From UHGV virus genome UHGV-0173140: DNA of 34,663 nucleotides; one strand, written 5' to 3'. The stretch is from a virus. A program made the position numbers and the translations under genes. The notes below the pieces were generated by a model, which saw only the letters and a list, made by a program, of their open reading frames with translations, was not told where the DNA came from and made no database searches. Position 1 is the first letter of the stretch. The number at the start of each line of letters is the position of its first letter. Positions 9,204-12,198 of the stretch are shown piece after piece.

Positions 9204-9539
9204 ATGAACCATGTAAATGCTATTCGTTGTAATGATGAATATCAATGTTCGCATTGTGGTAAATCGTGGGATATCCACGAAGAAGCACCAGATTGTAAAA
9301 TGACACTGGCTAGTGCAGACGTGTATAAAACGGTCAATTATTTTGGTTTGTCTTTAACTGTTCCTGAAGATATTGACTATATAGCCACGAATAGTTACGG
9401 GGTTGTTTACGGGTATTTTAGTGAACCAGAACTCTGTGATGAATTTTGGGATAATCGTCGTTACGGTATCCCAAAAGTGAGGCTTGCAACTGTAAACCTA
9501 CACGGTCTGGACTGGACGGAGACTCTAAGAGAATGTTAA
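9204..9539 (+). CDS. hypothetical protein
   Basis: Track ORF with SD gaggaag; Cys-containing N-terminus. Confidence 0.45.
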   Translation: MNHVNAIRCNDEYQCSHCGKSWDIHEEAPDCKMTLASADVYKTVNYFGLSLTVPEDIDYIATNSYGVVYGYFSEPELCDEFWDNRRYGIPKVRLATVNLHGLDWTETLREC

Positions 9540-9699: not shown

Positions 9700-9975
9700 A
9701 TGGAATACATGTATATTGTTTTCTCACTTCTGTTAATGATTGTTGTCGTTATTACAACTGAGAAAAAAGAACAAGGGGTGATAGGGTTAGCAGTTGCTCT
9801 GATTCGTGTTCTTTCAATCATGTTGCTGGTAACCAGTTTTTCAATTGCTTTTGACATCGTAGAATTACAAAGCGATTATTACGGTTTTGTGAAACTTCAA
9901 CATCAGCTAACATACGCCGTCATATTCGGTTTAGGTTCTGTTAGCCTCGCTGTTCTTTCATCTTTCAGACGTTGA
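9700..9975 (+). CDS. small membrane protein (about 3 TM helices)
   Basis: Hydrophobic segments IVFSLLLMIVVVI, LAVALIRVLSIMLLV, AVIFGLGSVSLAVL. Confidence 0.5.
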   Translation: MEYMYIVFSLLLMIVVVITTEKKEQGVIGLAVALIRVLSIMLLVTSFSIAFDIVELQSDYYGFVKLQHQLTYAVIFGLGSVSLAVLSSFRR

Positions 9976-10000
9976 AAAAAGCCCCGGACAGTTCCGGGGC
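9975..10000 (-). terminator. rho-independent terminator for the minus-strand operon (gccccgga-cagt-tccggggc, T-run on minus strand)
   Basis: Hairpin 9981-10000; plus-strand aaaaaa at 9975-9980 is the minus-strand U-tract. Confidence 0.6.
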
Positions 10001-10008
10001 AAAGTCGA

Positions 10009-10158
10009 TCAGTAAAACGTGAACGCGGAAAACTGTAATGGTACTATGAACGGACTGGTAAACCCTCTGAAAACGGCCTGAGTATGTGCAATCTGTGACT
10101 GAAGAAGACCAAATTGCGTAGCAGGACTTCCCAGACAACACGATGTTCTACAACACAT
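10009..10158 (-). CDS. small Cys-rich hypothetical peptide (49 aa)
   Basis: ATG with strong aaggggg SD; MCCRTSCCLGSPATQF...; lies between the last operon gene and the terminator. Confidence 0.3.
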   Translation of the reverse strand: MCCRTSCCLGSPATQFGLLQSQIAHTQAVFRGFTSPFIVPLQFSAFTFY

Positions 10159-10173
10159 AATAACCCCCTTTTT

Positions 10174-10428
10174 TTACGATTTTTCTGACTCTTTAAGACC
10201 TAAAACGGCAATTACTTTCACAGCGATACGTTGCGCCAGGTCTAACTGTTGCTGACTTAATTTCCCGGTAGTCATCACTGCCATGATCCCACTCATTGAA
10301 CCCAACGCTTTAAAATCGTTAAATGCCGACTTCATGATCACTTCTTGACTGTGACCTTCGTCTACGATTACGTGTGCGCGTAACCCCAGACTTTCGACTA
10401 CTTTGTCTACCCCTTCATTCTTCGTCAT
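10174..10428 (-). CDS. hypothetical protein
   Basis: Track ORF; last long gene of the minus-strand operon. Confidence 0.45.
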   Translation of the reverse strand: MTKNEGVDKVVESLGLRAHVIVDEGHSQEVIMKSAFNDFKALGSMSGIMAVMTTGKLSQQQLDLAQRIAVKVIAVLGLKESEKS

Positions 10429-10918
10429 CTTCGTTTACCTTATTTTTGGCTACTTTTGGTTGCTCACGAGGATCATTCATCGGGGGCCACGGGCTGATAT
10501 TTTCACGAGTTTCCACAGGTTCAGGTTCTGTACCTAAAAACTTACTGACAAATTCACCAGCAAAATGTGAAGTGTCGCTGACATAAACATGCATCCTGTC
10601 CAAATCAGCCTGACTAATTGAATTAGGTGCAATATTAATTTTAAATTGATGGAAACCAACATACATCACATTAACAGGTCGTTCGATTGTCCCCGGTGTC
10701 GGGGGAATCACACCCAAAATCCAACAGTAATGAAAACGACCATCACCCATCGGTTCACAACCAGCGTTAAGCCAGCTTACCTTCGGATGAGGAAACATTG
10801 TTGTTGAGTCAGTGGCATCCCGACGTAATGACCACTCCACACCACCAATGTTAATAGTGCTTCGCGGTTTCATACCGTTAAACTGGGTGACACCCATACC
10901 TGCGTTAATATTCTGCAT
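10415..10918 (-). CDS. hypothetical protein
   Basis: 167-aa track ORF; acidic C-terminal tail NEDDEE. Confidence 0.45.
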   Translation of the reverse strand: MQNINAGMGVTQFNGMKPRSTINIGGVEWSLRRDATDSTTMFPHPKVSWLNAGCEPMGDGRFHYCWILGVIPPTPGTIERPVNVMYVGFHQFKINIAPNSISQADLDRMHVYVSDTSHFAGEFVSKFLGTEPEPVETRENISPWPPMNDPREQPKVAKNKVNEDDEE

Positions 10919-10934
10919 GTCGGTTTCCTGTTAG

Positions 10935-11294
10935 TTACATCTTTTTAAGTGCGTGGATACAGGCTGCAGCCAGATCTGTTAGCTCTTTTTTAATACCAGA
11001 CGTCGAACCTTCGGTTTTTTCTTCCATCAGTTCGCGATATTCCATTTCAACAATGGACATCATCCCGCCGGGCTTATCGTGGTACGACGCCCAAGTCGAA
11101 GGAGGGTTATCCATACGTGCTTTAACATGGGCCATAACTGAACCATGTTCGCTAACAGAGCTATCATGATGAAATACTCCCATCGTGTCCGGGTGATGCC
11201 CGTGGTGATAATGATGGTGGTGATGAATTTCTACATCTTCCTCTTCATCGTCATCATCGTCTTTTTTGATAACGTAATACGGTTTGTAATGCAT
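10935..11294 (-). CDS. His-rich acidic protein
   Basis: KKDDDDDEEEDVEIHHHHHYHHGHHPD...FHHD; 119 aa. Confidence 0.5.
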   Translation of the reverse strand: MHYKPYYVIKKDDDDDEEEDVEIHHHHHYHHGHHPDTMGVFHHDSSVSEHGSVMAHVKARMDNPPSTWASYHDKPGGMMSIVEMEYRELMEEKTEGSTSGIKKELTDLAAACIHALKKM

Positions 11295-11344
11295 ACTCTC
11301 ATCTCCTGTTAAAGCGCCCCGTACAGAGGCGCTTAGTTGACCAA

Positions 11345-12043
11345 TTAGCAGCAGCCAGTCGGTGGAGTTTGCGGAGTAGGCAGCTTGAAGTTAATAAGCT
11401 GATCGACCTGGTTAATTTTGCACGCCAACTGAGACGTTTGTGACAATTGAGACAACTGGAAGTCACGGGTTTGAATCTGAGATTTCAGGTCACAAATCAG
11501 AACAGCCTGAGACTGTGCGAACTGGTCACGGATCAGTGCACGAGTTGCTTCCGCTTGACGTTCAATGTTCAGGTTGGTTTCGCAGCAACACTTCTCAGCC
11601 GCTAACTGTGCCTGGAAAGAACGAGTCAGTGCCGCAGTTTCAGATGCACAGATCGCATTGGTCACAGTGTTAGTACCCTGTTGAATCTGCGTGTTCAGAC
11701 CTGCAAAACCTTGAACGTTTGCCAGCAGGTTTTGTGTGTTCTGTTGGGTCAGACCGTTATAGGTAGAAGCTGCTGAGCGTTCAACAGTCAGGTTAGTACC
11801 ATTCTGACCCTGAATGTTAGCAAGTGACGCCGCATTAATAGCCTGAAGAATAGCGTTAGTATCCAGAGAGTTCTGAACAACAACACCTTCAGCAGCACCA
11901 ATACCACGACCACCCCAACCACCGCCACCACCCCAGCCATTACCGAACCAGGAACCGATAAGACCGCCGATACCACCACCAAGTGCAGCCGCGCCAGCTT
12001 CACCGCCGAAACCGCCAGTGGGAACTAAAGTCATGTCAGACAT
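11345..12043 (-). CDS. Gly-rich / Gln-Asn-Thr-rich protein with C-terminal Cys residues
   Basis: N-terminus GGFGGEAGAAALGGGIGGLIGSWFGNGWGGGGGWGGRG; C-terminus ends TGCC; aggag SD. Confidence 0.5.
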   Translation of the reverse strand: MSDMTLVPTGGFGGEAGAAALGGGIGGLIGSWFGNGWGGGGGWGGRGIGAAEGVVVQNSLDTNAILQAINAASLANIQGQNGTNLTVERSAASTYNGLTQQNTQNLLANVQGFAGLNTQIQQGTNTVTNAICASETAALTRSFQAQLAAEKCCCETNLNIERQAEATRALIRDQFAQSQAVLICDLKSQIQTRDFQLSQLSQTSQLACKINQVDQLINFKLPTPQTPPTGCC

Positions 12044-12050
12044 GTTGAAA

Positions 12051-12101
12051 CTCCTGTGAGAGAATGTTAATTAACTGTAACCGATCGGTTACTTACAGGA
12101 G
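12051..12101 (-). promoter_or_regulatory. 5' leader stem-loop able to sequester the SD of the Gly-rich gene; contains 16-bp perfect palindrome gtaaccgatcggttac (12077-12092)
   Basis: Arms ctcctgt (12051-12057) and acaggag (12095-12101) are complementary; one arm carries the aggag SD. Confidence 0.4.
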
Positions 12102-12127
12102 TATAAACGCGTTACATTAATCTAACA

Positions 12128-12175
12128 GATAATTTACAAACATTTATAATGTAATTTGTCAAGAATTAAAAAAGA
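12128..12175 (-). promoter_or_regulatory. conserved promoter copy, minus strand (TTGACA; reverse complement of 12157-12162)
   Basis: Reverse complement reads ttttttaattcttgacaaattacat; -10 element uncertain. Confidence 0.45.
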
Positions 12176-12198
12176 AAACAGGCGGGAATAATCCCGCC
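12163..12198 (-). terminator. rho-independent terminator after terL (ggcggga-ataa-tcccgcc plus T-run on minus strand)
   Basis: Hairpin 12181-12198; minus-strand tgttttctttttt follows. Confidence 0.55.

Follow-up and report, generated by a model that had tools for sequence, protein, structure and literature searches.

A conserved cysteine-rich small-protein gene at the end of a five-gene cassette in a 9NA-like siphovirus

The window analyzed here, which is the whole 34,663-nt stretch of the virus genome UHGV-0173140, contains a short, Cys-rich open reading frame (ORF) at the 3' end of a minus-strand unit, and this raises the question of whether the frame is a real gene and, if so, what kind of product it encodes. 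The frame, designated gene E, was taken from the ORF listing as an ATG ORF on the minus strand between positions 10009 and 10158 including the stop codon, and would encode a microprotein of 49 amino acids, MCCRTSCCLGSPATQFGLLQSQIAHTQAVFRGFTSPFIVPLQFSAFTFY. It is the last in a unit with the order A232-B119-C167-D84-E49 (gene and length of the product in amino acids), and all five products belong to PHROGs of unknown function. Overall, E is very probably the window's copy of phage 9NA gp15 and PHROG 25697, that is, a selected gene at the last position of its unit, with a product that may be an accessory microprotein.

The signals around the frame were located on the minus strand. A Shine-Dalgarno (SD) sequence, AAGGGGG, lies between positions 10164 and 10170, 5 nt before the ATG of E, and the order of elements ahead of E was found to be TAA (10176..10174, the stop codon of gene D), AAAAA, GGGGG (10168..10164), TTATT, and ATG (10158..10156), which leaves a gap of 15 nt between the D stop and the E start. 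The initial annotation, which gave no strand, had described aaggggg-N5-ATG in front of a 49-codon frame beginning MCCRTSCC, with four Cys within the first eight residues, and this description was borne out, the Cys being at positions 2, 3, 7, and 8. Its placement of the ORF between the last operon gene and the terminator was also correct, as the D stop precedes E by 15 nt and a hairpin, GCCCCGGAACTGTCCGGGGC, followed by TTTTTT (10000..9981), begins 8 nt past the E stop. The intrinsic terminator that ends the unit (9971..10000, minus strand) consists of an 8-bp stem with 7 GC pairs, a 4-nt loop, and TTTTTT; it was the best terminator-like site of the region, and the same terminator is annotated in the AVIO78A, Sasha, Sergei, and Solent records. 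Because an A-run flanks the hairpin on its other side, the terminator can also serve the convergent plus-strand genes. The SD sequence was retained as AAGGGGG in the 9NA-like relatives and as TAAGGAGG in the Seuratvirus orthologues, where AAGGAGG was read in CAjan, SA126VB, GottfriedDienst, and yong3; Seurat itself was a tblastn match only. An in-frame stop codon 5 codons 5' of the E ATG excludes a longer N-terminus. The D stop and the E ATG were observed to share one frame in the window (10156..10176, minus strand), five codons apart. Read-through from D to E was considered and rejected, as the spacer is shorter by 1-2 nt (A residues) in relatives, and the shared frame is incidental.

Next, the coding potential of the frame was evaluated. 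In 4% of shuffles of the 198-nt gap, a closed ORF with an ATG start and 49 codons or more occurred, so the length of E is only mildly unusual, and a 58-codon GTG frame overlaps E in another frame. Length alone is thus weak evidence, and it is conservation that lifts E above chance. When the gap was aligned across 11 sequenced relatives of the window, the E frame was intact in all 11, with 54 codons in each, so that the test by which the initial annotation would have abandoned the gene, a frame broken in relatives despite conserved DNA, gave a negative result throughout. The 32 variable columns of this alignment were distributed as 2, 5, and 25 over codon positions 1, 2, and 3. Compared with the Salmonella relatives, E showed 17 synonymous and 4.5-6 non-synonymous differences, and the ratio of non-synonymous to synonymous substitution rates (dN/dS) was 0.047-0.067 in the E frame versus more than 3 in either alternative frame (Fisher p = 1.4e-8). 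Constraint was strongest in codons 1-30, where dN was about 0-0.015 at a dS of 0.8-0.9 (dN/dS 0-0.016), and dN/dS in the tail was 0.08-0.15 within the 9NA group. Third-position bias combined with low dN/dS is the signature of a translated protein, and on this comparative evidence E is a true gene for a small translated protein, with strong purifying selection acting on it and a functional core that, judged in the same way, is the N-terminal 30 residues. Two minority metagenomic variants were frameshifted, in the tail only. The proposal of a real small gene with its own SD at the operon 3' end is accordingly strongly supported by the intact frame, the dN/dS of about 0.06, the SD in two lineages, and the PHROG match given below.

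To place the gene in a family, the window and the E product were compared with sequence databases. The window is a 9NA-like (Nonanavirus/Sashavirus) Escherichia coli siphovirus that matched 15 phage records by megablast, with identities from 96% (Sashavirus BDX09P1, Bas82 KarinMuster, and PJ16) down to 83% (9NA and SP069). E matched phrog_25697 (PHROG 25697, unknown function) over residues 1-45 with an E-value of 3.3e-7, and phmmer gave E-values of 4e-25 to the 54-aa orthologue and of 1e-9 and 8e-6 to Seurat-like members. No Seuratvirus record was returned by megablast, the DNA being too divergent; the Seuratvirus orthologues, in which the motif is kept, were reached through protein search only. 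These were proteins of 67 aa with 41-58% identity, found by tblastn in the Seuratvirus phages CAjan, Seurat, SA126VB, GottfriedDienst, and Hafnia phage yong3, and orthologues were also present at the same cassette position in two metagenomic contigs. An exhaustive phmmer search of 1.84 billion representatives yielded 4 clusters, and a profile search of 5.8 billion proteins yielded 9, all of them stand-alone proteins of 36-81 aa on phage-like contigs, with no domain fusions or wider homologues among the clusters found in either search. The family is thus confined to 9NA-like and Seuratvirus phages, and E had no match in Pfam, NCBIfam, or PADLOC. The copy in the window showed the profile match, all 16 invariant columns, the synteny, and the Pro/Phe-rich tail (family range 24-40 residues).

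The records of 9NA (gp15, AIB07018.1), Solent (CPT_Solent_024), and Bas82 (Bas82_0006) list the orthologue as a hypothetical protein, and it was left out of the annotation in Sasha, Sergei, PJ16, SP069, AVIO78A, and PDP46, six of the nine annotated genomes. Calling the frame unannotated therefore holds for these six relatives and not for the other three, and the suggestion that it goes missing because of a size cutoff fits, as some annotators do call the gene. The three annotated proteins resemble the window's E in having 92-100% identity over the shared residues, the start MCCRTSCCLGSPATQ, the same SD, and the placement between the D homologue and the bidirectional terminator; they differ in length, at 54 aa versus 49 aa in the window. 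The Seuratvirus proteins (CAjan AJT60510.1, SA126VB_29, and bas21_0028) share the invariant core, and their genes likewise stand at the end of the same five-gene cassette, where they have a strong SD and face a convergent homologue of the neighboring gene F across a bidirectional terminator. Unlike the window's copy, they have only 41-58% identity to it, a longer and Pro-richer tail that cannot be aligned, and Gly in place of C3. As a sequence family E is already known from PHROGs and some GenBank entries, and the window's copy is a new, slightly shorter member; what is new here is the purifying selection, the invariant motif, the narrow distribution, and the origin as an add-on to a widespread cassette.

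The invariant core of the protein was M-C…CC-LGSPATQ-x-G-x-LQ-x-Q-x-A, and the residues invariant across the family were C2, C7, C8, L9, G10, P12, A13, T14, Q15, G17, L19, Q20, Q22, A24, P40, and F48. The Cys cluster delimited by the family alignment (codons 2-9, positions 10132..10155, minus strand) comprises C2, C3, C7, and C8 followed by L9; C3 is Gly in most Seurat-like members, the others are invariant, and one Seuratvirus subgroup has an extra C-x-C at residues 29-31. AlphaFold2 (AF2), run on E with four homologues, predicted a single alpha-helix at codons 12-31, PATQFGLLQSQIAHTQAVFR (10066..10125, minus strand), and coil elsewhere; the predicted local distance difference test score (pLDDT) was about 55-60 in the helix and 53 for the model, which is low confidence. 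The putative helix is rich in Gln and Ala and carries the invariant P12, A13, T14, Q15, G17, L19, Q20, Q22, and A24, and its hydrophobic moment was 0.05-0.14, indicating that it is not amphipathic. As its invariant residues are mostly polar or small, we infer that it may make a specific macromolecular contact rather than bind a membrane. E has a net charge of +3 and no signal peptide, and its Kyte-Doolittle maximum over 19 residues, 0.9-1.3, argues against a transmembrane (TM) segment. Residues 128-156 of A matched CAjan E by blastp without composition correction (E-value 5e-4), and E as a duplicated piece of A was rejected, since hhalign gave a probability of 1.6% and the match was a Gln/Ala composition effect.

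The Pro/Phe-rich tail, delimited by the alignment as codons 32-49 (10012..10065, minus strand), ends in Tyr and is the variable part of the protein. Relative to all the sequenced relatives, the tail in the window has an in-frame 15-nt deletion at a site around 10018 that takes out (F/V)RPFV, and the shortened tail still ends FTFY. Past residue 30 there was no alignment between the lineages, and a composition rich in Pro, Phe, Ala, and Val was kept. The C-terminal residue is hydrophobic, being Leu in yong3 and aromatic in every other member, with VFY, VFW, RIF, RIW, RMF, and FFL as the C-termini of the family. A metagenomic 9NA-like contig (L025, 2501-2746) has a 10-nt deletion at the same site as the window, and the resulting frameshifted E runs through the terminator to a length of 81 aa; this copy also lacks RTSCC owing to an in-frame loss of 15 nt between two TGTTGT repeats, which restores M-CC-LGS. 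With deletions of 15 nt and 10 nt at one site, the E tail contains a deletion hotspot. A truncated E of 36 aa was found in one Seuratvirus contig. Comparison of CAjan with SA126VB (3001-3204) gave a dS of 0.10 in codons 1-30 and 1.15 in the tail, and this jump suggests a recombination breakpoint inside the gene. The tail is probably disordered.

With regard to function, E may tentatively be regarded as a cytoplasmic accessory microprotein with a thiol or metal site and a helix that docks on a conserved partner. The invariant thiols would bind a metal ion or take part in a thiol link, the conserved polar helix would dock on a partner that is itself conserved, most plausibly another protein encoded in the cassette, and the rapidly evolving tail would face a surface that varies more. 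Candidate partners are A, with its CCCET motif and terminal GCC, and B, with its poly-His tract. The absence of a signal peptide leaves nothing to place E in the oxidizing periplasm. The metal-binding or disulfide peptide proposed in the initial annotation is favored by the invariant C2, C7, and C8 and by the C-x-C of the Seuratvirus subgroup, and stands as a suggestion. Cys-rich metal-binding micropeptides of the metallothionein type resemble the E family in their vicinal Cys pairs, in the CxC of some members, and in the His-rich neighbor; unlike them, E has only 3 invariant Cys and no match to a family model. A bolder and distinctly less probable proposal is that a recently born or captured E plugs into the A-D cassette and modulates virion or tail-fibre maturation or host interaction, in which case its Cys cluster would pair with the CCCET and GCC cysteines of A, with B as a possible metal donor.

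Several observations weigh against a docking protein with a thiol or metal site. No known metal-binding family matches E, C3 is mostly Gly in Seurat-like members, and three thiols in a reducing cytoplasm prove nothing; metal binding and docking alike we purely infer. The helix is not amphipathic and comes from a low-confidence model (pLDDT 53), hhalign lends no support to kinship between E and A (1.6%), and the metagenomic variants with a frameshifted or truncated tail (P0002 and P0051) indicate that the tail is not indispensable. Searches of Pfam, NCBIfam, and PADLOC, PDB sequence search, and Foldseek gave no function for any cassette gene. In addition, the plasmid-dependent phage PDP46 (PQ783785.1) carries a 1.9-kb deletion corresponding to window positions 10291..12187, which begins within the hairpin of the TerL terminator, ends halfway through D, has its junction at a GGGAT microhomology, and removes A, B, C, and half of D; E is unchanged and is presumably read through from TerL. 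This deletion indicates that A-C are dispensable for growth on the host of PDP46 and that E can exist without them, which does not fit an obligate partnership, and it is too recent for selection to be judged.

Four other explanations were weighed against a functional accessory protein, two of which deny the frame any function. One is that the locus is non-coding, a structured 3' untranslated region (UTR), a small RNA, or a terminator-associated RNA, with an accidental ORF; the position at the operon 3' end beside the terminator, the 4% of shuffles with such an ORF, and the overlapping 58-codon frame speak for it. Against this, the 2/5/25 bias, the dN/dS of about 0.06 in the E frame alone, and the in-frame deletion in the window all follow the reading frame, and the Seuratvirus copies keep the protein motif despite DNA divergence. 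The 216-nt RNA from 9965 to 10180 (minus strand) folded no better than shuffles (z = -0.08), and only the terminator hairpin persisted in the centroid structure; Rfam at the gathering score gave nothing anywhere in the window, and ARAGORN found no tRNA or tmRNA in it. The non-coding explanation has hardly any probability left and is effectively refuted. Just as little credit is due to the idea that E is a young ORF between D and the terminator, translated, functionless, and drifting, even with its presence in two lineages only, 9 clusters among 5.8 billion proteins, no fusion to a known domain, a low-complexity tail, a deletion hotspot, and frameshifted variants. Drift is contradicted by strong purifying selection in the N-terminal part (dN about 0 at a dS of 0.8-0.9) and clear selection in the tail (dN/dS about 0.1), and by 16 residues that do not vary between the lineages, even though their other cassette proteins are only about 75% identical.

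The other two explanations assign E a different function. In a precursor of the ribosomally synthesized and post-translationally modified peptide (RiPP) type, the 25 invariant residues at the N-terminus would serve as the leader, to be recognized by a cassette enzyme, and the variable Pro/Phe-rich C-terminus would be the core. The small size, the conserved-leader and hypervariable-core pattern, the recombination breakpoint between the N-terminal part and the tail, and the unknown proteins C and D encoded directly upstream would suit such a peptide, and the pattern fits a docking domain with a variable tail equally well. However, no neighbor matches a maturase, RiPP recognition element, protease, or transporter in Pfam or NCBIfam, the C model has no known enzyme fold, the Cys residues are in the conserved part and not in the supposed core, and the conservation of A-D in many phages without E shows that they are not enzymes dedicated to it, making a RiPP very unlikely. 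About as unlikely, if by a hair less so, is an envelope factor that acts in lysis timing or superinfection exclusion or mimics the C-terminal signal of outer membrane proteins (OMPs), possibly together with F. The last residue of every intact member is hydrophobic and in most cases aromatic, and such C-termini resemble OMP beta-signals and DegS-activating tails; the tail is also Pro-rich like that of o-spanins, and the membrane protein F accompanies the cassette in Seuratvirus. Rz1-type o-spanins are small proteins with a Pro-rich C-terminal part and functionally important Cys, to which E bears a likeness without any database match. Yet E has no signal peptide, lipobox Cys, or TM segment, the stop codon 5 codons before its ATG leaves no room for one upstream, its gene neither lies within nor adjoins an i-spanin gene, eiAU carries F but not E, and variants without the tail exist. 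In Bas82 the canonical holin, endolysin, Rz, and Rz1 genes are about 30 kb from the E orthologue, with the separate spanin pair at 33.6-34.1 kb and the orthologue at 3.8 kb. A canonical lysis role was rejected, the holin, endolysin, and spanin genes being elsewhere.

A conserved orphan microprotein in a siphovirus will not surprise a specialist, and E is a fairly ordinary example, a reasonable but not urgent experimental target. For annotation, the point is that E was missed in about two thirds of the relatives (6/9) even though few sequences of the region are as strongly constrained. Biologically, it is a lineage-specific extra gene on a four-gene cassette that Tlsvirus, Nonagvirus, Seuratvirus, Eiauvirus, 9NA-like, and Yersinia phages have in common, and if it was recently born or captured by the cassette and plugs into it, it would offer a way into the function of a cassette found in well over 100 siphovirus genomes. 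The invariant Cys cluster and the Gln-rich helix offer concrete residues to mutate, and E is directly testable because Bas82 (KarinMuster) and the Seuratvirus phages of the BASEL collection grow on E. coli K-12 derivatives.

The distribution of the cassette was traced in other phages. Seuratvirus phages were found to carry all five genes in the order seen here, closed by the same terminator, and there they follow the tail-fibre genes and not TerL; identity between the 9NA-like and Seuratvirus lineages is about 70-80% for A, C, and D. A-D without E were found in about 140-180 phage records, including Tlsvirus (DanielBernoulli), Nonagvirus (JenP2), Eiauvirus (eiAU), and Yersinia phages; D is 69-71% identical in the Tlsvirus and Nonagvirus cassettes that lack E. 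This widespread A-D cassette normally comes after tail-fibre genes. In the phages without E, the D stop abuts or sits in the terminator hairpin, which indicates that E is a lineage-specific insertion between D and the terminator. About 180 phage records contain a homologue of A, in most cases directly behind the tail-fibre genes; they span Tlsvirus, Nonagvirus, Seuratvirus, Eiauvirus, Yersinia phages, and T5-like Epseptimavirus, where A occurs alone. The BASEL, Seuratvirus, and HIDEN-SEQ papers contain nothing on these cassette genes.

The cassette is parted from the packaging gene by a terminator after TerL (12181..12198, minus strand). A TTGACA hexamer lies past this terminator at 12162..12157, for which the scan found no acceptable -10 element, and AVIO78A has an annotated terminator and promoter at the place equivalent to the TerL-cassette junction. 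Gene A (11345..12043, minus strand; 232 aa, PHROG 9288) encodes a protein whose N-terminal part is rich in Gly and Trp, GGLIGSWFGNGWGGGGGWGG; a CCCET motif is invariant in it, and GCC stands at the C-terminus. Pfam has no family for it, and its labels "lateral tail fiber chaperone" (PJ16) and "putative sugar-binding protein" (BASEL records) could not be traced to evidence. A hairpin, AGCGCCtctgtacGGGGCGCT, was observed between A and B (11305..11340, minus strand); its equivalent is annotated as a rho-independent terminator in AVIO78A and SA126VB, and it may attenuate transcription into B-E. Gene B (10935..11294, minus strand; 119 aa, PHROG 9157) encodes an acidic run followed by a HHHHHYHHGHH tract, DDDDDEEEDVEIHHHHHYHHGHH. 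The orthologues in CAjan and yong3 are also His-rich, and the one in Bas21 is annotated as a "putative pyrophosphatase" and has no Pfam match. Gene C (10415..10918, minus strand; 167 aa) belongs to PHROG 8329, of unknown function, and its model (AF2 pLDDT 79) had no match to a solved fold. Gene D (10174..10428, minus strand; 84 aa, PHROG 7239) comes directly before E and shares 14 nt with C. PDB sequence searches with C and A gave nothing below an E-value of 0.1. A weak GajA-like stretch in D (E-value 0.004) was disregarded, and Pfam, NCBIfam, and PADLOC were otherwise empty for A-D.

On the opposite strand, the convergent gene F (9700..9975, plus strand) encodes a 91-aa membrane protein with three TM domains, according to the Sasha and Solent annotations, which give its topology as N-out and C-in. 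F is 51-57% identical to its Seuratvirus homologues and 44% identical to eiAU gp12, always faces the cassette end across the same bidirectional terminator, and lies outside the annotated lysis cassette. Also on the plus strand, a 111-aa protein (9204..9539) was noted that matched the Pfam double zinc ribbon PF07191 with an E-value of 7.6e-4 and 19.9 bits, below the cutoff of 25; it also matched several PHROGs of unknown function and carries a CxxC…C pattern at its N-terminus.

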